Positions 5,297 to 28,975 of a stretch of 32,000 bases of DNA are shown here, piece by piece. Made by a program: the position numbers and the translations under genes. Origin of the DNA: Wolbachia endosymbiont of Dirofilaria (Dirofilaria) immitis (lineage in GTDB: Bacteria > Pseudomonadota > Alphaproteobacteria > Rickettsiales > Anaplasmataceae); NCBI RefSeq assembly GCF_013365455.1, contig NZ_CP046578.1, forward strand, positions 180,001 to 212,000, written 5' to 3'. Positions within the stretch are counted from its first letter, which is position 1, and each line of letters begins with the position of its first letter. The notes beneath the pieces are model-generated. The model did no database searches, was not told where the DNA came from, and saw nothing but the letters and a program-made list of their open reading frames with translations.

Positions 5297-5672
5297 TGAG
5301 TAATTATAGAAATTTGCTAAAAGGCGTGAAAAGTCTATAGTAGCCTTAGCTATTTTATGATTTAATGTTAAAAATAAAGTTGTTGTCTAATTTGCGCTAA
5401 GCATATCGTTATGCTTAATTCAAGATTGTGTAAACATGGTGAACCTTCTATAGAAAAGAGTCAGTGAAAGTGTAATACACGGAACAAAAATATACATGTA
5501 CTTAAGTATACTAAAGGGGATGCATCACACTATGCTTTGTACTGAATAAGGCTTGCAAACGAGGGTAAATTTGAGGTTCTTGAATGTCTTTGCTGCTGGT
5601 AGAGTGGAGGTATAAGAATATATCAAGATTTTTTTTTGATCTATGACCCTTATCTTCATATCTTTTTAAAAA

Positions 5673-5718
5673 GCTAGAATCTAGAAAAAAGAAATATGAA
5701 GTAGTTAAGCTACTTCAA
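5673..5718 (+). repeat. intergenic copy of the palindromic repeat family also found inside pccA, ctaA and the NDUFAF7-like gene
   Basis: It shares the exact 12-mer tagaatctagaa (5675-5686) with 23005-23016. About 20 nt later it has gtagttaagctacttca, versus cagtattagctactca in the genic copy, in colinear order. Confidence 0.55.
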
Positions 5719-6146
5719 TAAGAGTTTTTAAGAAGAAAGTGACTTCTGTTTGAAGCTTTTTTATAGAATATGAAAATACTTAAGAACTTGGGCTGTCTGA
5801 TTTGATGGTAGAATTATACTTTTTATTAAAGTTAGAAAATGTTTTGTCCTTAAGTAAATATCTGCTTTTTTATACTATTTGCTTATGCTTGATTAGAAGA
5901 AAAATTAGACCTATATGCTTTGATAGGTTACTCTTAATATTTATAATGTTTTCTTACTATCAAAGCTGATATACTGCAATTATATAAAAGTTTATTTTTT
6001 TAATCTGTTTTTTATAATATCGAGGAAGGGAAATTTGCTAAGGTTACAAAAGAATGTTAACCCTATACAATTTGAAAAATTGTATCTTCTATGTGAGTTG
6101 ATTTTGTTAACAAAGCTAACTAATATCTAAATAAGTTATTACTTAA

Positions 6147-10492: not shown

Positions 10493-11866
10493 TCACCAGG
10501 TTGTAGTACCATCTTCGTTGTCGGAAATTGTAACCTTCATTTTTTTTAACTTGTCTCTTATTCTGTCTGCAGTGTCATAATCTTTATTTTTTTTTGCTGC
10601 TTTTCTTAAATTTATTAATCTTTCTATTTCTTGGTGGTCTATGCATGCGGTAAACCACTCTTGATAGCTTGACTCAAGAAGACCAATAAATCGTGCGCTC
10701 TTAACAAAACTTTCGATTAATTTAAGTTTTTTATGTTCATTGTTCATTTTGTTGATTTTTGTAGCCATTTCATGTAATATGACTAAAGCTTCAGGGATAT
10801 TTAGGTCATTTTTCAAAGCCTCTATAAAGTCTTTATACACTTCTGCATCGCTTTTCTCGATGCTTGCTACATTTATGTTACGTAATAATCGATAAAACTT
10901 GTTTAAGGTTTCTTGTGACTCCCAAATAACACCTCCTGTCCAATCAAGTGGTTTTCTGTAATGAGTTTTGAACAGTGCATAACGTATTACTTCGCCCTTT
11001 ATTCCACTGTCAAGCAAATCTCTTACTTTGATTATGTTAAGTAAAGACTTGCTCATTTTTTCTTCTTCTACCGTCAGAAAACCGTTGTGTACCCAATGTC
11101 TTGCGAACATTGACCCAGTAAATGCAGATTTGCTTTGCGCAATTTCATTCTCATGATGGGGAAATTGCAAATCTATACCACCGCCATGGATGTCAAAATC
11201 TCTTCCAAGGTATGCATATGCCATTGCTGAACATTCTATATGCCATCCAGGTCTTCCTTCTCCCCATGGGCTACTCCAGTGACTTGAAAGCTTATAGTCA
11301 ATATCGTTTGCTGGTTTCCACAGCACGAAATCTCCTGGGTGTTTTTTGTTCTTGCCAACTTTTACTCTATTGCCATGATCTAGTTTATCAATTTTTTTCC
11401 CTGATAAAGCACCGTACTCGGGGTAAGATTCAATGCTGAAATATACATGTTTATTGGATTCATAGGCATGGTTAGATAATAGTAAATGTTCAATTAATTT
11501 AATGATGCAACCTATATTTTCCGTTGCTTTTGGCTCATGTGTTGGTTCTACACAGTTTAGACTTTTCATATCTTCATGAAAAGATTTGGTGTAGTATGTG
11601 GTTATGCTTTTTATGCTGCTGTTTTTCTCACTTGCTGTATTGATTATCTTGTCATCAATATCGGTGATGTTACGCACATAAGTAACTTTGCTGTAATAAG
11701 ATTTAAGCAACTGAAATAATACATCGTAAACAACAACAGAGCGTGCATTACCTATATGTGCCATATCATATACGGTTGGTCCACAAACATACATTTTTAC
11801 ATGGCTTTTGTCGATCGGTGTAAAGAACTCCTTTTTTTTTGTTAAAGTGTTATAAAGTTTAACCAT
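10493..11866 (-). CDS. cysS: cysteinyl-tRNA synthetase
   Basis: Class I HIGH variant ([12 protein letters not shown]), KMSKS (EKMSKSL) and zinc/Cys-binding WHIECS are present. Confidence 0.95.
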
Positions 11867-12518
11867 GTATAAAGCTTTTTAGAAAAGAAAATGCTCCAAT
11901 TATGAGCTGTGGTCCTTCAACTATTACAACAAGAGTAAGTAATAAGCCGCATAAAGATATTAGGACCCCTAGTGTAGAAAGAAGTCCGTCCTTGCTCATA
12001 ATGCCAAGTGAAATAAGAGTTGTGCCAATTGCAGGAATAAAATTGGTTAAGGGTAGTGGAATGGCTATCGATAGTGCACAGAGCAACATTATAAAAGCTA
12101 AAATTTTCTCGCCAGGTCCATAGAAAATGAAAGGTATTCTTGGTTTCATGAATTTTTCTATTTTTTTTAATGCAGGTGAGGTTCTCTTTACCACAAAAGC
12201 TAATGTTGAGAATTGGAAGGATTTCCTTTCTAGCCAATGCGGCATCCAGGGAGAATGAAACCCAAATAGAAGCTGCAGTGAAAATAAGATTAAAGGTATG
12301 GAAAGTATAGTTGTGTAACCAGGTGGAACAGGTATAGGTACTGACAGTGGTAAGGAGAAAATAATTATTAAAATACCAAAACCGCGCTCTTGTAGAGCTA
12401 TTTTAATATCAAATAATGTCACTTTGTCACTGTTAACAGTATTGATGTCTACAACCTCTTTTAGGATATCGGAAACCAATTTTTTATTTTTAGTTAGTCT
12501 CTCACTTTTTTTGCACAT
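11859..12518 (-). CDS. exoD: ExoD-family membrane protein (exopolysaccharide synthesis ExoD-like), copy 1
   Basis: ExoD-like pattern (ERGFGILIIIFSLPLSVPIPVPPGYTTILSIPLI...PWMPHWL) in a multi-TM protein. Its stop overlaps the cysS start (ATGGTTAA). Confidence 0.75.
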   Translation of the reverse strand: MCKKSERLTKNKKLVSDILKEVVDINTVNSDKVTLFDIKIALQERGFGILIIIFSLPLSVPIPVPPGYTTILSIPLILFSLQLLFGFHSPWMPHWLERKSFQFSTLAFVVKRTSPALKKIEKFMKPRIPFIFYGPGEKILAFIMLLCALSIAIPLPLTNFIPAIGTTLISLGIMSKDGLLSTLGVLISLCGLLLTLVVIVEGPQLIIGAFSFLKSFIHG

Positions 12519-12608: not shown

Positions 12609-12635
12609 GCATAAGATGTTATAAAGCTTAACTAC
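12609..12635 (-). pseudogene. dead duplicate of the cysS 5' end (about 8 codons, ATG replaced by GTA)
   Basis: The sense strand reads gta gtt aag ctt tat aac atc tta tgc taa (VVKLYNILC*). Functional cysS reads atg gtt aaa ctt tat aac act tta (MVKLYNTL). It is a by-product of the tandem duplication. Confidence 0.65.
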
Positions 12636-13284
12636 GTATAAAGCTTTTTAGGAAAGAGAGTGTTCCTGTTATAAGTTGTGACCCTTTAGCTATGACAATA
12701 AAGGTGAGTAACAGCGCACACAATGATATGAGAACTCCTAATATAGAGAGAAGCCCATCTTTACCCATAATACCAAGAGAAATAAAAGTTGTGCCAATTG
12801 CAGGAAGGAAGTGGGTAAAGGGTAGTGGAAGAGCTATTATTACTGCACAAAGTAACGTTGTAAGAGCTAAAATTTTTTCGCCAGGTCCATAGAAAATGAA
12901 AGATACTCTTGGCTTCATGGACTTTTCTATTTTTTTTAAAATAGGAGAAATTTTTTCTACTATGAGAATTACTATTGAGCGTTTAAGAGCTTTTTTTTCT
13001 AACCAATAAGGTACCCAAGGAGAATCAAGTCCGAATAAAAACTGCAGTGAAAGTAAGATTAGAGGTATAGAAAGTATAGTTGTATAACCAGGTAGCACAG
13101 GTATAGGTAGCGATAGTGGCAAGGAGAAGATAATCATTAAGATACTAAAACCGCGCTCATGTAAAGCTGTTTTGATGTCAAATAATGTTATTTCATTGCT
13201 GTTGGTGGTGTTGGTATGCACAATCTCTTTTAGAATATCGGAGGCTAATTTTTTATTTCTGATCAGCTTCTTACTTTTTTGCAT
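12628..13284 (-). CDS. exoD: ExoD-family membrane protein, copy 2 (tandem paralogue)
   Basis: By eye it is roughly two-thirds to three-quarters identical to copy 1 over the full length. I place the start at the ATG at 13284 (MQKSKKLIRNKK, aligning with MCKKSERLTKNKK). The ORF-track extension to 13341 covers sequence homologous to the untranslated leader of copy 1. Confidence 0.75.
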   Translation of the reverse strand: MQKSKKLIRNKKLASDILKEIVHTNTTNSNEITLFDIKTALHERGFSILMIIFSLPLSLPIPVLPGYTTILSIPLILLSLQFLFGLDSPWVPYWLEKKALKRSIVILIVEKISPILKKIEKSMKPRVSFIFYGPGEKILALTTLLCAVIIALPLPFTHFLPAIGTTFISLGIMGKDGLLSILGVLISLCALLLTFIVIAKGSQLITGTLSFLKSFIRS

Positions 13285-13375
13285 AGTTGCCCTGGTGAAA
13301 ATTACTAACTTTAAGCTAACATGATTGCTCTTGTGTTTCAATCTATATTTTAGTCTATACTTATTTTTGAATGAA

Positions 13376-14489: not shown

Positions 14490-14631
14490 TAACCTGAAAC
14501 TATTTTATAAAAAATAATAACGTGATATTCAAGGAATGTACAGAAATGTTTTTGTTATAAGTTAGTTATAAAAAGAATCTAGAAAAATAAGGAGTTTTTT
14601 TGTTATGATCATGTGAAATAATAGGAAATAC

Positions 14632-22445: not shown

Positions 22446-23489
22446 ATGCTCTCTTATATATGTAAATTAATTGATAAAAACCGAGGGTCAATACCTATTA
22501 GTGATTTCATGGGTGCTGTTCTATACCATAAAAAATATGGCTATTACATGAGTAGATCACCACTTGGTAAGAATGGTGATTTTATCACGGCGCCTGAAAT
22601 CAGTCAATTATTCGGTGAAATAATTGCAGTTTGGGTAATGTATACATGGGAGAAATTAGGAAAGCCACTAAAATTTTCTCTAGTTGAACTTGGACCAGGT
22701 AAAGGAACACTTATTTATGATATAGTAAGGGTCACTAAAAAACATAGTAGTTTTTTTAGATCAATGGCCATTCACCTGGTTGAAATTAGTCCTACTTTAC
22801 AAAGGATGCAGAAGGAAAAATTAAAAGAGTTAAATATTGATTGGCACATAGATGTTAATAACTTGCCGAGGCAGCCAACTATTTTTTTAGCAAATGAATT
22901 CTTTGATGCCTTTCCTATAGATCAATTTATATATCATAATGGTGGGTGGTATGAGAATAGAGTAACAAGGCAGGATGATAAGGTATCATTTCAGTGTTTG
23001 ATGTTAGAATCTAGAAGGAAAAAATCGTGTATTCCAGTATTAGCTACTCAGGTGACAAATGGGAAACTTTTTGATGGTGCAGTGGTGGAAATATGTTCAG
23101 CTGGAATTAAAATACTAAAGAGACTTGAAGAAAAAATAGTTAATGATGGAGGAGCTGCCATAATTATAGATTATGGCTATGTATATCCTACATATAAAAG
23201 CACTTTACAGTCTATAGGACAACATAAGTATTCCAATTTTCTTGAAAATGTTGGTAATAATGATATTACTGCACTTGTGAATTTTCAAGCATTAAAGAGC
23301 TCATTAAAATATGTAGACTGTGAAATTTTAACTCAAAGAGAATTTTTATATCTTTTTGGTATAAAAGAAAGGGTGCAAGTTTTAATGGGAAATTCAGATA
23401 ATGAACAGAAGAATAGAATCTTTAGTGAGTTTTTAAGGTTAACTGAAAATATGGGCACTCTCTTTAAGGTAATGTTAATTAATAATTAG
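22446..23489 (+). CDS. class I SAM-dependent methyltransferase, NDUFAF7/MidA (DUF185) family
   Basis: FMGAVLYHKKYGYY, GDFITAPEISQLFGE, ELGPGKGTL and ANEFFDAFPI are DUF185/MidA hallmarks. It contains an in-frame repeat insert at about 22983-23062. Confidence 0.82.
   Translation: MLSYICKLIDKNRGSIPISDFMGAVLYHKKYGYYMSRSPLGKNGDFITAPEISQLFGEIIAVWVMYTWEKLGKPLKFSLVELGPGKGTLIYDIVRVTKKHSSFFRSMAIHLVEISPTLQRMQKEKLKELNIDWHIDVNNLPRQPTIFLANEFFDAFPIDQFIYHNGGWYENRVTRQDDKVSFQCLMLESRRKKSCIPVLATQVTNGKLFDGAVVEICSAGIKILKRLEEKIVNDGGAAIIIDYGYVYPTYKSTLQSIGQHKYSNFLENVGNNDITALVNFQALKSSLKYVDCEILTQREFLYLFGIKERVQVLMGNSDNEQKNRIFSEFLRLTENMGTLFKVMLINN
22983..23062 (+). repeat. in-frame palindromic repeat element inside the NDUFAF7-like gene (encodes VSFQCLMLESRRKKSCIPVLATQVTNG)
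   Basis: The ungapped alignment of 22983-23057 with 27090-27164 (pccA) has 52 of 75 identical bases. Both start at codon phase 0. An internal arm gatgttagaat (23000-23010) can pair with attccagtatt (23031-23041). Confidence 0.8.
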
Positions 23490-23522
23490 TTAATATTTTA
23501 TATACTTAAAAAGTGGTGTCAG

Positions 23523-24884
23523 CTACAGTTTCTGTAACCTTTTTATACACTCATCTCTACCAAGAGTTATCATTATATCAATGATTTTAGGTGCATTCAT
23601 TGTTCCGGTTATGGGGGCACGTAATGAGTGGTACACATTACTTATTTTAATATCATATAACTTTGAAAACTCTTTGATCTGAGAGGATAGAAAGTTCTTG
23701 TTCCAGTTTTTATCACTAATGTTCGAAAGGAATGATACAAGTAACTTGATTATATCAAGGTTAGATTTAATGATTTGCTTGGCTTCTTCGTTTAAATTAA
23801 GTGGTGGATCTTGAATATAAAACTGTGCTAAATCCAATAATTCGTTTAGGTAGCTTGCTCTTTTTTTTAGTTCTGTTAATCCATGTAGTAAGTAATTCTT
23901 TTTTTTGTTGGTTAGAGTTTTTTTTCTAAGAATTAGAGCAATAATATCTGTATTACTCATATTATTAATATAATACTTGTTTAAGTACTCTAGCTTTTTA
24001 AAATCGAGGCGCGCAGGTGAACGACCAATGTTTTCCAAATTGAACCACTTTATTGCCTGCTCACTATTGATGATTTCATCGTTCCTATGACTCCAGCCAA
24101 GTCTAAGTAAGTAATTACGCATTGCCTCCGGCAATATTCCCATTTTTTCGTAGTCACAAATACTTATTGCTCCATGCCTTTTGGATAGCTTATTTCCATC
24201 CTCCTGATAAATTAATGGTACATGCGCAAAATGTGGAACATCAAAATCAAGAGCTTGGTATATCAGTAATTGTTTAAAAGTATTAGTGAGATGATCAGAA
24301 CCACGTATTATATCAGTTATTCCAGCATCATGATCATCAACCACTACAGCAAAAATATAAGTTGGAGTGTTGTCAGAGCGTAAAATTACTATGTCATCAA
24401 GTTGGTTGCTATTTACTTTAATTTGACCATATATTCTATCGTTAACAACGATATCTTGTGAATCTGGTACTTTAAATCGGATAACAGGCTTTACATTTGA
24501 TGTTACATTGAAACATCTATGCTTGTATATCTTTCTTTCCTCTCTTGCTTTTGCCTTCTTTTCTGCAACTTTATCCTCGGGGCAATAACAATGATACGCT
24601 TTATCTCTTTTGACTAAAAGATTTGCGACTTCAATGTGCCGCTCTATTCTTTTTGATTGGTATATTATTTCCCCATCGTAACTCATATCGAGCCATTTCA
24701 ATCCGTCTATTATTGTATTAATTGCCTCTTGTGTTGAGCGTTTTCTGTCGGTGTCCTCGATCCTTAATAAAAATTTACCGCCATGATGCTTTGCATAGAG
24801 CCAATTGAATAAAGCAGTGCGAGCTCCACCAATGTGTAAATAACCCGTTGGCGATGGGGCAAATCTAGTGACTATGTTTGGCAT
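23523..24884 (-). CDS. gltX: glutamyl-tRNA synthetase
   Basis: RFAPSPTGYLHIGGARTALFN (HIGH), LRIEDTD and KLSKRHG (KMSKS) are present. Confidence 0.93.
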   Translation of the reverse strand: MPNIVTRFAPSPTGYLHIGGARTALFNWLYAKHHGGKFLLRIEDTDRKRSTQEAINTIIDGLKWLDMSYDGEIIYQSKRIERHIEVANLLVKRDKAYHCYCPEDKVAEKKAKAREERKIYKHRCFNVTSNVKPVIRFKVPDSQDIVVNDRIYGQIKVNSNQLDDIVILRSDNTPTYIFAVVVDDHDAGITDIIRGSDHLTNTFKQLLIYQALDFDVPHFAHVPLIYQEDGNKLSKRHGAISICDYEKMGILPEAMRNYLLRLGWSHRNDEIINSEQAIKWFNLENIGRSPARLDFKKLEYLNKYYINNMSNTDIIALILRKKTLTNKKKNYLLHGLTELKKRASYLNELLDLAQFYIQDPPLNLNEEAKQIIKSNLDIIKLLVSFLSNISDKNWNKNFLSSQIKEFSKLYDIKISNVYHSLRAPITGTMNAPKIIDIMITLGRDECIKRLQKL

Positions 24885-25472
24885 GTTTGTCTATTACAGC
24901 AATGTGAGTGATTGTAGCTAAAGTTCATGATTATAACAATTTAGAATTTATTTATTTTGAAAGGCAAAAGTGTTTTATCTAAAGCTATAGGAAAAGAAGA
25001 TAAAGATTAGGAAGAAGTAGAAAGATTAAAGGGTAAAGGGAGGATATATAAAAAATACTCGTGGGTAAAGGTTATATTAAGAATAATTAGAGAGTAATGG
25101 TAACACCTCTTTGTTTATTAGGTCTTGTAAAGAACGGAAGAAAGTTAGGTGAGCTATGTGAGCTATAGGCGTAGAAAGTAACTTAATATGTGATAAGAAA
25201 TTTTGTTTGTGTTTATCCTTGTGCTTTTTATTTTTTTTGGTTCTCAATCTCTCTTACATTAGCCTTAGTAGCTGTAGTAGCTTCTAGATAATCTACTTAT
25301 CTATTGTTTATGGCATGTAACAAGATATATGGTTTATATTATGAAAATAATATAATATCAGGTTCTAGTATTGTACAATTTTTAAAGAGTGGTTTAGCTA
25401 TGACATAGGTTAGAAATCACTTAAGATGATAATATGGAAATTTGCTTTCTTAATTCAAGGAAGTAAACTTGT

Positions 25473-27755
25473 ATGATGACAGAAAGAAAGTATTGTAAAA
25501 TTTTAATAGCAAATAGGGGAGAAGTTGCCTGTAGGATCATTAAAACTGCCCATAGGGTGGGTATATCTTGTGTGTGCGTGTATTCAGATGCAGATATAAA
25601 TTCTGTACATGTAAGACAAGCAGATGAGTCGAGATACATTGGCCCTTCGCCTTCTTGCTTGAGTTATTTGAACATTAAAAAGATATGTGAAGCAGCAGTT
25701 GAAGTAGGTGCACAGGCAGTTCACCCTGGTTATGGATTTTTGGCAGAAAATCCAGATTTTCCACGTGCTCTGCAAAGACATAATATAGATTTTATTGGCC
25801 CGAGTGCAGAAACAATAGAAGTGATAGCTAATAAAATAACAGCAAAAGAAGCAGCAAAAAGGGCTGGGGTCAATGCTGTACCAGGGTATATAGGCAAGGT
25901 CAATGATGCTGCCCATGCAGCTCGTGTTGCTGAAGAAATTGGATTCCCTGTTATACTAAAAGCTGCTTTAGGTGGTGGTGGTAAAGGCATGCGAGTTGTG
26001 AGCTCCAAGAGGGAAATTGAATTAGCATTTATATCAGCAACAAACGAAGCAGAGAAAAGTTTTAAGGATGGGAGTATTTTCATAGAGAAGTATATAGAGT
26101 TATCGCGGCATATTGAAATACAGATCATAGCAGATAAATATGGGAATGTAATATGTCTTGGAGAAAGAGAGTGTTCGGTACAAAGAAATAATCAGAAAAT
26201 AATAGAAGAGACTCCAAGTCCGTTTATTAGTGAAAGGGTAAGACAGGGAATGTATGCCCAATGTGTTTCTTTGGCAAAGCAAGTAGGTTATTTTTCAGCA
26301 GGTACTGTTGAGTTTATTGTAGATAAAGATCAAAATTTCTATTTTCTTGAAGTAAATACTAGGTTGCAAGTTGAGCACCCAGTAACAGAGTTTGTAACCG
26401 GAGTAGATATAGTAGAAGAAATGATAAGAACTTCCTGTGGGGAAAAATTAAGGTTCAATCAAGATGATATTAAACTTACTGGATCTGCTATAGAAAGCAG
26501 AATTTGTGCTGAAGACCCATCGAAAAAATTTTTCCCTTCTAGCGGAAGAATAAAGTATTATGATAAGCCGGATGAAAATTTTTCTATATGTCCCCCTATT
26601 GTTTCAGTATCAAACACTGCAATCCAGGAAAAAAGTGAGTTAGTTTCAACATTGCATGCTGGAATGGGTAGCACTATTGGCTTTTCATCAAAGCAATTGC
26701 TGTGTAAGGAGTCCAATAACTTTCTAAGGATAGATGATGGAGTTGCTGCAGGCTCAGAGATTAGCATGTTCTATGATTCAATGATTACAAAAGTGATAAC
26801 ATATGGAAAAGATAGAATAGAGGCAATCGGCAGGATGCAAAAAGCGTTGTCTGAATGTTATATAGAAGGAGTAGCAAATAATGTAGAATTTCTGGAATCC
26901 ATCTTTCATCATCCAAATTTTGTTGCAGCAAAACTTCACACAAGATTCATTTCAGACCATTATCCGAATGGGTTTCACGGTGACTTTATTACAGAAGAAT
27001 ATATTAAGATATTTATTTTTGCTGTACTATATGTTCATTTAGAAAATGAGGAAAGGTGCTATTATAGAGCAGTGAATGAAACATCTCTAGTGTCATTTAG
27101 GCATATGATGCTAGAATCTACAAAGAGAGAAGAATTGGTTTCAGCATCGGCTGCTCGGGTGACACCTTGTGGTGTTGGAATGACGCTCAGTAATATTGGG
27201 GCAATATCTAATAGTAGTGGAGTTATAGACAGACGTGCAAGAGATTTATTTATAGTGAAAGTAAATGGCAGCGAGTACTCCATAAATGCGAAGTATCAAA
27301 ATAACATATTAACAACGGTATATAATCACAATATATACTCTGTAATAGGTAAGTGGAAATTAAGTTATAGATTACTATGTATCACAATTAATGATGACAC
27401 TAGTATAACACTTAGAGTAGAAAGACAAGGCAGTAAACACTTTATAAGACATGCTGGAATGCAAGCTGAGTGTTCTGTATTTAAGCCTCATATAGCTAAC
27501 TTAAGTAAATTTATGCTGAGTCATGAAACAGAAATAGTGACAGTAGATGCTGTAAAATCTCCAATATCTGGTTTATTAGTTAAGTTATGCATGAATGTAG
27601 GAGATCGGGTAAGGGTAGGACAACCTTTATTTGTTGTGGAAGCGATGAAAATGGAGAATATTATATGTGCTGAATCAGAAATGGTTATAAAAAATATTCC
27701 CGTTCAGGAAGGAAAGAATGTACAGGTTGGTGATGTGGTCTGCTTTCTTAAATAG
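25473..27755 (+). CDS. pccA: propionyl-CoA (acyl-CoA) carboxylase alpha subunit: biotin carboxylase plus BCCP domains
   Basis: [17 protein letters not shown]-grasp [10 protein letters not shown] and [14 protein letters not shown] are present, with the C-terminal biotinylation motif EAMKMEN. At 760 aa it is about 95 aa longer than the roughly 660-aa proteins I know. The excess lies in two repeat-derived inserts. Confidence 0.93.
26578..26720 (+). repeat. in-frame repeat insert 1 in pccA (about 47 codons: ..[46 protein letters not shown]..)
   Basis: It interrupts the conserved Y-x-x-P...(V/L)R-x-D-x-GV segment of biotin carboxylase. It contains two sub-copies, gtttcagtatcaaacactgcaatccagg and gtttcaacattgcatgctggaatggg, related to gtttcagcatcggctgctcgggtgaca of insert 2. 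The boundaries are approximate. Confidence 0.65.
27084..27230 (+). repeat. in-frame repeat insert 2 in pccA (..[48 protein letters not shown]..)
   Basis: It shares 52 of 75 bases with the NDUFAF7-gene copy in an ungapped alignment. It has hairpin potential: 27090-27095 pairs with 27160-27165, and 27107-27118 pairs with 27137-27148 (9 Watson-Crick pairs, 2 GU pairs, 1 mismatch). The boundaries are approximate. Confidence 0.75.
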
Positions 27756-28975
27756 CATAAAAAATATAAACCTGATCCAAATAAGATAAATGAAAACATT
27801 TGATGGGCAACGGCAACGGCTATTGGTATATACAATAATAAAGTAATTATCCCTAGAATTACCTGAATGATAACGGAGAGTAGCATAATATATACTGATT
27901 TTACACTAGTGTTTTTTATTGCAAGTATTATTGTTAAAACTAATATCAGCAGTGCTAGTGCTCGATGTATAAATTGCATTGTCGCTCTGTTCTCAAAGAT
28001 ATTAAGCCATATTGGTTGCAATGAAAATAAATCTTCTGGGATGATTTGTCCGTTCATTAGTGGAAAGGTATTATAAATTAAACCAGCATTTGATCCTGCA
28101 ACAAAAGCGCCGAAGATTATTTGTATAGTAACTAGAGTTAGAATGAGCATTGTGTAATATATGCTACAATTAGTAAACTGAGATTCTGTCATTCTAGTAC
28201 ATAATACACAACTGTATGGATACTTGCTTTTAAAAGTAAATTGCATAGTAAATGGTGTTATTTCAGTACTTAGTACTGGAGTCCAGCTTTCACTATACGG
28301 CTGCTTGATATGTGCGTTTAAGGTTAAGTTTTCTGGATTCCAGTATCTGGTTATTGAGATGGCATCTTTCTTAGTGAAAATTGCTCTTATATTATAGTGT
28401 TTGTACAAGTGTGTACATAACACTGGGATCCATATTTGGTAATCAAAAAATTGGTATAATAGTAATGCAAAGATAACTAATGCTAACAGCAAGTGAAGTG
28501 CAAGCCTGTAGTGACTAACACATGGTTTAGATACCAAGCCACTTTTAACCATATACCAACCGGCAAGGGCTTGTAACACTCCAAACGATAGTGCTATAGA
28601 TAGCCTTATTACTGCCTTTTTAGATATTCTCTTTTTCAGCAGAAAATATATAAATGGCAGAGCGAAGACTAAACCTATTAGTCTTGCAACCAATCTATGT
28701 ATATATTCTATTAGATATATAGTACGAAACTCTTTCATGCTGATGCCATAGTTAAGTATTTTATATTCAGGTGTGACCTCATATTTTAATTTTTCTTGTA
28801 GCCAATCTTGTTCACTTAGTGGCAGTAATACTCCAGCAAGTGGTTTCCATTCCGTGATTGATAATCCTGCTTTTGAAAGTCTTGTGAACCCACCAATTCC
28901 CACCGTGAAAATCACCATAATAGAGCAGAGCAAGAGCCAAATGATTACGGATTTTGATTGCTTTTGTTCCATCAT
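27704..28975 (-). CDS. ctaA: heme A synthase (COX15/CtaA family)
   Basis: [18 protein letters not shown]...[19 protein letters not shown], HRxxA histidine motifs ([16 protein letters not shown]) and AHQ are present. A central insert of about 91 aa is absent from the CtaA architecture I know. The 3' end overlaps the pccA 3' end by 52 nt. Confidence 0.88.
28163..28435 (-). repeat. composite in-frame repeat insert in ctaA (about 91 codons, at least three core copies)
   Basis: The core peptides are [11 protein letters not shown] (28403-28435), [10 protein letters not shown] (28256-28285) and [11 protein letters not shown] (28181-28213). They parallel SCIPVLATQVT of the NDUFAF7-gene copy. The nucleotide cores tggatcccagtgttatgtacac and tggactccagtactaagtactg resemble tgtattccagtattagctactc. 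Confidence 0.7.

Follow-up and report, generated by a model that had tools for sequence, protein, structure and literature searches.

WPE, a palindromic repeat of Wolbachia, is said to have been described by Ogata, Suhre and Claverie in 2005 (Trends Microbiol 13:253). Here we report WPE copies in a stretch of 32,000 nucleotides (nt) from the Wolbachia endosymbiont of Dirofilaria immitis (contig NZ_CP046578.1, positions 180,001 to 212,000; hereafter "the window", in whose coordinates features are given), where they lie in frame within three housekeeping genes, encoding a MidA/NDUFAF7-type methyltransferase, the propionyl-CoA carboxylase alpha subunit PccA and the heme A synthase CtaA. The repeat at these sites consists of decayed copies of the already described WPE, and the finding is real but ordinary.

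Palindromic WPE-like inserts that are in frame and do not inactivate their host genes occur in addA, addB and priA of supergroup A and B Wolbachia (PMC4224334), and the 2005 description of WPE is also cited in reviews (PMC2229807, PMC2996958). The Rickettsia palindromic elements RPE-1 to RPE-8 are palindromes of 100-150 bp, found both in intergenic regions and in frame within housekeeping genes, where they typically correspond to surface loops; in the one case tested, gmk, the insert was neutral or slightly harmful (Ogata et al. 2000 Science, 2002 Genome Res; PMC2229807, PMC1779305). Guanylate kinase of Rickettsia conorii has been expressed both with its insert and without it (Abergel et al. 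2006). Some RPE insertions are ancient and genus-wide, e.g. that in pheT, and one palindromic family common to Rickettsia and Anaplasmataceae has been mentioned with reference to the 2005 work (PMC1779305). Bacterial repeats with coding potential that resemble miniature inverted-repeat transposable elements (MITEs) include ERIC, Correia/NEMIS and YPAL (PMC2229807). No description of WPE at the two pccA sites and the ctaA site in supergroups C and J was found in the searchable literature.

The source of the window (G+C content 32.7%) is a filarial Wolbachia of supergroup C. The nearest genome in the species-representative collection is that of the Wolbachia of Onchocerca ochengi, with a PccA identity of 87%. 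The pccA neighbourhood was taken from 76 genomes and the orthologues were aligned; the loci scanned for WPE comprised 0.5 Mb of Wolbachia DNA and 0.76 Mb of outgroup DNA. The region in question contains four genes, i.e. those encoding the methyltransferase (+), gltX (-), pccA (+) and ctaA (-), and its features are summarized in Table 1.

Family membership of the repeat

A preliminary description of the window, made from the sequence alone, had pointed to a repeat of about 75 nt shared by the methyltransferase gene and pccA, with 52 of 75 bases identical in an ungapped alignment (22983-23057 versus 27090-27164), and had judged this far above background. Comparison of all 75-mers of the window on both strands confirmed the judgement: mean identity was 20.7 (standard deviation 3.9) and the next best value 39, which places the pair about 8 standard deviations above the window-wide background. 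The corresponding 69% is the best paralogous identity among the copies in the window. The peptides quoted for both copies match exactly, and both copies begin, as claimed, at codon phase 0, i.e. at codon position 1 of the open reading frames (ORFs) 22446-23489 and 25473-27755. Similarity beyond shuffled controls was also obtained with a matrix for the 27-nt core (ATCCCAGTGTCACGCACTGGGATGACA) trained solely on loci outside the window. Its scores were 21.0 bits for the methyltransferase copy, 21.1 bits for the pccA copy and 18.2 bits for ctaA, against 16.3 bits for the 99th percentile of the best matches in shuffled windows.

WPE is represented among the NCBI curated models by TIGR02697 (WPE_wolbac), a 36-residue model of the long form with a cutoff of 27.55 bits. 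Within the window this cutoff is exceeded by the ctaA insert (30.6 bits, E 2.4e-7), and outside it by orthologues of the other two sites: at the methyltransferase site the Cantharis strain has a full-length match of 70.7 bits and wStur scores 30.4 bits, and in pccA insert 2 the Psylliodes strain scores 29.0 bits. One methyltransferase orthologue is named "WPE domain-containing protein" by its source. The two 75-nt copies are too decayed and too short for TIGR02697, and they are assigned to WPE because of their orthology to recognised copies and on the basis of nucleotide models. The motifs SSQC, TLGS and IPVSSTGMT, named in the preliminary description, are indeed encoded by less-decayed orthologous copies.

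A covariance model (R1), built from 14 copies, was used to scan the sampled loci. Of its 64 matches, 63 were located in Wolbachia loci, many of them outside the training set, and one in outgroup loci. The core matrix behaved similarly, with 77 matches in Wolbachia DNA versus one in outgroup DNA; 33 of the 77 (43%) are intergenic. The sampled loci thus hold many further copies, nearly all in Wolbachia DNA. Rfam contains no family for the element, and its only matches in the window were rRNA and tRNA. The palindrome, the dispersed copies and the TIGR02697 matches in ctaA and at orthologues of the other two sites bear out the original view of an RPE-like protein-coding palindromic repeat of Wolbachia and show that the inserts belong to the WPE family.

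Table 1. Host genes, inserts and WPE copies in the window
Feature	Position	Strand	Evidence and remarks
Possible decayed intergenic WPE remnant	5660..5724	+	Covariance model 15.1 bits, E 0.12; exact 15-mer CTAGAATCTAGAAAA at 5674; also picked up as repeat D8; candidate
Host gene 1, MidA/NDUFAF7-type SAM-dependent methyltransferase, 347 aa	22446..23489	+	Pfam PF02636, E 4.6e-58; product 100% identical to a protein of the Dirofilaria immitis Wolbachia
Short-form (76-nt) WPE, in frame, encoding VSFQCLMLESRRKKSCIPVLATQVT (methyltransferase residues 180-204)	22983..23058	+	52/75 identity, core matrix 21.0 bits, 25/31 pairs
gltX, without insert in the window	23523..24884	-	
Host gene 2, pccA, propionyl-CoA carboxylase alpha subunit, 760 aa	25473..27755	+	Pfam biotin carboxylase, PCC_BT and biotinyl domains
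pccA insert 1, about 47 codons	26580..26720	+	Splits Biotin_carb_C (Pfam match in two stretches)
Decayed WPE hairpin, first part of pccA insert 1, hybrid reading frame	26596-26671	+	Covariance model 18.3 bits, E 0.015
pccA insert 2, whole	about 27084-27248	+	Adjoins the BT domain on its N-terminal side
Short-form WPE at the start of pccA insert 2	27090..27165	+	Core matrix 21.1 bits, 26/31 pairs
Second hairpin of pccA insert 2	27166..27248	+	Folds as hairpin; similar sequence at orthologous positions only
Host gene 3, ctaA, heme A synthase, 423 aa	27704..28975	-	Pfam PF02628 and NCBIfam NF045570, two stretches each
Lineage-specific segment of ctaA (residues 182-271), made up of several WPE hairpin modules	28163..28432	-	Parts the two COX15-CtaA domain halves
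Long-form WPE domain in ctaA (CtaA residues 206-240)	28256..28360	-	TIGR02697 30.6 bits, E 2.4e-7

Structure of the WPE copies

The WPE stem comprises 31 pairs, of which the methyltransferase copy keeps 25 and the pccA copy 26 with G-U included. Across 14 paralogous and orthologous copies 72.4% of the cells of this stem pair, compared with 31-44% when the partner column is slid, and the same columns recur as unpaired, i.e. 10-67 in 11 of the 14 copies and 15-62 in 10. The pccA copy is predicted to form a long interrupted hairpin that is more stable than shuffled sequences (-28.1 kcal/mol, z -2.15), and the methyltransferase copy takes the same topology with a stability no better than that of shuffles (-11.5 kcal/mol, z +1.16). 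Of the two-stem hairpin proposed for both copies, the palindrome and the placing of mismatches at equivalent columns are therefore real, while the folding of the methyltransferase copy does not stand out.

The pccA hairpin is unusually well preserved, with 26 of 31 pairs, and when compared with its best-preserved orthologue, the Psylliodes copy, it shows four compensatory changes. Covariation as a sign of hairpin upkeep proved marginal (score 0.215 versus 0.186 in shuffles, reached by 4 of 500), and double-sided pair changes (9 versus 8.0 in shuffles) were rejected as evidence of selection. The same applies to compensatory changes between the window and the Onchocerca ochengi orthologues, of which there are 0 to 1 per copy against a rough chance estimate of 0.5-0.8.

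In the Wolbachia of Psylliodes chrysocephala the short WPE of pccA insert 2 is duplicated in tandem (L004:11477-11624). Its second copy (L004:11549-11624), orthologous to the copy at 27090, has 31-nt arms with 30 of 31 pairs and a purine-rich loop of 14 nt; this near-perfect state suggests recent activity or homogenisation in that strain.

The core copy reported in pccA insert 1 gives a weak match in the window (Table 1) and a clearer one in the Onchocerca ochengi orthologue of the insert, where the core matrix gave matches of 22.9 and 14.6 bits. The second halves of pccA inserts 1 and 2 have no repeats elsewhere in the sampled loci and are similar to sequences at orthologous positions only, so they are not claimed as a separate repeat family.

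The ctaA segment is 270 nt long, with a net gain of about 77-80 codons, and folds at -51 kcal/mol (z -2.57). It contains an exact copy of the 9-nt core motif ATCCCAGTG with its end at 28429. At its centre, identity to the WPE copies of L007 and L004 (the methyltransferase gene of another strain and intergenic DNA) amounts to 88-89%, and TIGR02697 scores 39 bits in the Onchocerca ochengi insert. Three cores had been proposed here. TPVLSTEIT (28256-28282), which lies within the TIGR02697 match, is significant on its own at 18.2 bits. With 2.8 and 6.0 bits, IPVLCTHLY and the third core do not leave the null range and are suggested only by their position in a lineage-specific insert. The third core aligns with a clear VIPVSRTGVTGF module in wStur.

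Insertion status and distribution

All four inserts sit within intact, stop-free ORFs of 347, 760 and 423 amino acids (aa), and the host-domain matches (Pfam, NCBIfam) resume on either side of them. Most Wolbachia and Anaplasma capra have a PccA of 656-668 aa, compared with 760 aa in the window; CtaA comprises about 330-350 aa in most Wolbachia, compared with 423 aa.

Insert 1 of pccA was found only in supergroup C (the window, the Onchocerca ochengi strain and WOLB0982) and supergroup J (the strains of Dipetalonema caudispina and Cruorifilaria tuberocauda). Its site is empty in 20+ other Wolbachia, Anaplasma, a Rickettsiaceae metagenome-assembled genome (MAG), Lacibacterium and Hyphobacterium. 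Complete copies of insert 2 are present in supergroup C and in the strains of Cruorifilaria and Tribolium; the insert occurs as a tandem duplicate in the Psylliodes strain and is part-deleted in three others; it is missing in 15 Wolbachia and in all of the outgroups just named. The ctaA segment is confined to supergroups C and J, and 14 other Wolbachia have the short loop QIRPKQTKLKISSNT instead. Two divergent Wolbachia, a Rickettsiaceae bacterium and Ehrlichia, Anaplasma, Neoehrlichia and Mesenet have a short unrelated loop without WPE at the methyltransferase site. In strains of supergroups A and B the insert has 25 residues, as in the window, e.g. VSCQCVTLESRKKESWTPVSATQMT; in other strains it is enlarged by nested expansion, to about 100 residues at most, or reduced by deletion.

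The empty orthologous sites and intact ORFs confirm the reported in-frame insertions in three conserved genes. The check proposed for ancestral residues gave the same answer: the outgroups have no homologous residues, so that the extra segments are insertions, and these are of different ages. The methyltransferase copy was in place before supergroups A, B, C, D, F and J diverged, and pccA insert 1 and the insert in ctaA go back to the ancestor that supergroups C and J have in common. Orthologous copies have undergone arm deletions (L005, L030, L031, L003), hairpin-tip deletions and one tandem duplication (L004).

The methyltransferase loop is a hot spot, with nested WPE clusters of up to about 100 residues in different strains (orthologues P0024, P0026, P0027 and P0039; alignment columns 190-340). 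In supergroup B strains such as P0033, about 12 residues are left at this loop.

Orientation and reading frame

The preliminary description held that the genic copies in all three genes share one orientation and one codon phase, and took this to imply filtering for a single tolerated translation or a peptide module with its own function. Analysis of the reading frames did not uphold this. In six-frame translation the best-preserved copy encodes VSFQCVTLESRKEKEWIPVSRTGMT (VSFQCVTLES...WIPVSRTGMT) on the plus strand and MSSQCVTLGSTLFLFWIPVSRTGMT (MSSQCVTLGS...WIPVSRTGMT) on the minus strand. Frame 2 is open on both strands (VIPVRDTGIQ...SVTHWDD) and frame 1 contains two TGA codons; two of the three frames are likewise open in the consensus. 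Because both strands encode nearly one peptide, shared orientation carries little information. Orientation is marked by the loop only, and several independent copies score alike on both strands (e.g. 57.7 versus 57.4 bits).

The codon phase differs between the host genes. The 15-mer CTAGAATCTAGAAAA begins at codon position 1 in pccA, where it is translated as LESTK, versus codon position 3 in ctaA, where it is translated as WNPEN. Arm 1 is translated as VSFRH in insert 2 of pccA versus IVSVS in insert 1, and the 9-nt motif is used in two frames inside one 75-nt copy, as SFQC in arm 1 and as IPV in arm 2. Genic copies in the sampled loci use all these readings, including VIPVRDTGIQ...SVTHWDD and SCHPSSRHWDPE. 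That the two full copies share a translation is expected about half the time, because two frames are open, and only two independent events are involved. The same orientation and frame in a palindromic coding repeat are expected because of the symmetry of the element and its stop-codon content, and are not evidence of a functional peptide; nor does the intergenic location of 33 of the 77 core matches favour such a role.

In gltX of two arthropod Wolbachia (L004:8616-8680 and L005:4319-4383) an in-frame WPE has a third reading, SCHPSSRHWDPE...WSRAGMT, which is possible because its loop variant is without TGA.

Constraint on the inserts

In the comparison with the Onchocerca ochengi strain, nonsynonymous (dN) and synonymous (dS) divergence amounted to 0.215 and 0.416 for insert codons (n = 210; dN/dS 0.52), versus 0.062 and 0.405 for host codons (n = 1317; dN/dS 0.15). 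Thus, dN is about 3.5 times higher in the inserts. The two supergroup J strains gave dN/dS of 0.35-0.39 for inserts and 0.15-0.16 for host codons. In the AlphaFold model of the methyltransferase (mean predicted local distance difference test score, pLDDT, 85.5) the first insert residues stand in for a beta-strand, and insert residues 189-205 fall below 50. Owing to their faster evolution, low pLDDT and positions in the host domains, the insert peptides are read as weakly constrained, and they behave as spacer loops. The relaxed constraint and the low-confidence modelling of the insert further weaken the proposal of a functional peptide module.

Origin of the inserts

We put at roughly 90% the probability that WPE, as a selfish hairpin element, inserted long ago in frame into loops of the three housekeeping genes, has been tolerated there since, and has decayed. 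WPE would be a non-autonomous selfish repeat in which the motif ATCCCAGTG and its complement form nested inverted repeats, with a short form of about 76 nt and a long form of about 110 nt with a conserved loop. It may have spread early, its copies landing at many sites of the ancestral Wolbachia genome. Copies in essential genes would have survived only where the added length was a multiple of three, where the frame used had no stop (two of the three consensus frames being open, and the palindrome equalising the orientations), and where the insertion fell in a surface loop or an inter-domain linker able to tolerate it. Decay would then have proceeded through substitutions with an AT bias and through internal deletions and duplications associated with the hairpins; the observed arm and tip deletions and the duplication fit slippage at hairpins.

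Several observations weigh against this scenario. TIGR02697 has no match at E up to 10 to the two 75-nt copies of the window or to pccA insert 1. The patchy distribution of pccA insert 2 fits repeated loss, repeated gain or recombination. Insert dN/dS below 1 (0.35-0.52) indicates residual constraint on the peptide or the nucleic acid. Finally, no clear target-site duplication or terminal signature was seen when the filled and empty sites of three inserts were aligned as nucleotides, the junctions being blurred because the insertions are old. Since no target-site duplication was identified, the insertion mechanism itself is something that we infer, as is the neutrality of the peptides.

The residual constraint could mean that the inserts are not purely neutral and that either the linker peptide or the hairpin, at the RNA or the DNA level, has taken on a function, e.g. 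translation pausing between domains or spacing of the CtaA halves. We consider this improbable. The idea draws on the maintenance of frame ever since supergroups C and J diverged, in a 0.92-Mb genome subject to strong deletion and AT pressure, on dN/dS of 0.35-0.5 and on the 26 of 31 pairs kept in pccA together with the four compensatory changes mentioned; the covariation and compensatory changes described above were marginal or near chance.

Slightly less probable still, and by now largely refuted, is the earlier idea that the inserts form a peptide module with its own function or were filtered for one tolerated translation. Every recognisable sense-strand 27-nt core in the window does read IPV..T..T, insert dN/dS is below 1 against three relatives (0.52, 0.35 and 0.39), and the frame has been kept across the C/J split in very reduced genomes. 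However, the two strands encode one peptide, two frames are open, and VIPVRDTGIQ and SCHPSSRHWDPE are read elsewhere; even in the window LESTK in pccA stands against WNPEN in ctaA, and VSFRH against IVSVS. Moreover, 43% of core matches are intergenic, dN is about 3.5 times that of the host codons, the insert at one site varies from about 10 to about 100 residues, and it is modelled as disordered.

That the extra segments are ancestral protein parts lost elsewhere is very improbable and is refuted by the empty sites of the outgroups. The methyltransferase site is a variable loop at which outgroups have about 16-20 unrelated residues, and the patchy pccA insert 2 requires several losses or gains; on the other hand, nothing homologous to these residues is present in Anaplasma, Ehrlichia, Neoehrlichia, Mesenet, Rickettsiaceae or free-living alphaproteobacteria, and the segments are palindromic as DNA and match a dispersed repeat that is also intergenic.

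A chance or compositional resemblance of AT-rich, low-complexity coding sequence, which the low G+C content, the shortness of several claimed cores (two of those in ctaA lying in the null range) and the unremarkable fold of the methyltransferase copy might suggest, is refuted for the two full copies and the ctaA long form by the 8 standard deviations of the 52/75 identity, the independent matrix scores above the shuffled 99th percentile for both copies, the TIGR02697 E value and the four occurrences of the 15-mer (see below), and is possible for ctaA cores 1 and 3 and the intergenic candidates.

Other features of the window

The 15-mer CTAGAATCTAGAAAA has four matches in the window at up to two mismatches, versus 0.29 expected. 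One of these, with two mismatches, lies at 14572-14586 just upstream of a tRNA gene and is a candidate decayed WPE remnant in intergenic DNA. A candidate core at 13191-13217 (10.8 bits) falls in the null range and was taken as chance.

The 3' ends of pccA (+) and ctaA (-), which are convergent, overlap by 52 nt (27704-27755). The overlap is similar in the Onchocerca ochengi strain (L001) and absent from Wolbachia with shorter genes.

Positions 1-650 of the window contain the 3' end of the 23S rRNA followed by 5S rRNA, with no 16S rRNA nearby; such a split rRNA arrangement is typical of Rickettsiales. Two ExoD-family paralogues (PF06055; E 6.8e-50 and 1.1e-47) are arranged in tandem on the minus strand (ORFs 11859-12518 and 12628-13341). 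A stretch of 300 nt (11843-12142 versus 12612-12911, spacing 769 nt) is 79% identical between them, and such a tandem duplicate is unusual to keep in a reduced genome of 0.92 Mb.

Comparison with known repeat systems

The finding matters little beyond annotation and method. Very decayed filarial WPE copies escape the curated protein model and are still recognisable via orthology and nucleotide models. Supergroups C and J have two rare genomic changes in common, pccA insert 1 and the ctaA insert, which could be used as markers for the clade.

MITE-like repeats share with the WPE copies their small size, lack of autonomy, capacity to form hairpins and ability to fuse in frame to genes. They differ in having defined terminal inverted repeats and, in most cases, TA target duplications, a signature that was not identified in the inserts. 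The PARCEL palindromic coding repeats (PMC2996958) are likewise small and hairpin-forming and can produce in-frame fusions, but they form tandem arrays in surface proteins, in contrast to the single inserts in enzymes observed here.

The behaviour of the inserts equals that of RPE. However, RPE belong to another genus and show no convincing sequence match, so we treat them as an analogue. On four Rickettsiaceae loci, model R1 gave one match of 25.3 bits, which pairs well and shares little sequence. The Rickettsiaceae matches were set aside, as they look like generic AT-rich palindromes. The match of 25.3 bits, the sole outgroup match of the WPE model, is L025:4674-4743 of a Rickettsiaceae MAG, an AT-rich, near-perfect palindrome of about 70 nt with AGAATCTAGAAAA, which might be an RPE-type element distantly related to WPE.

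The addA, addB and priA regions (PMC4224334) too are palindromic, in frame, stop-free, located in housekeeping genes and hard to align between strains. They concern other host genes and were excluded from analysis in that work, so that their age, frame and constraint were not studied.

WPE itself differs from the two 75-nt copies of the window in that these lie below the reach of TIGR02697, a long-form model. The finding correctly rediscovers an element of a known kind, in a genome whose copies are too decayed for the curated model, and it borders on what is already known. The inserts resemble WPE in other respects: it is Wolbachia-specific, dispersed, palindromic, both genic and intergenic, and inserted in frame into conserved genes without inactivating them; it encodes the peptides IPVP.HWDPE and WIPVSSTGMT, and the ctaA copy, together with orthologues of the other two sites, passes TIGR02697.

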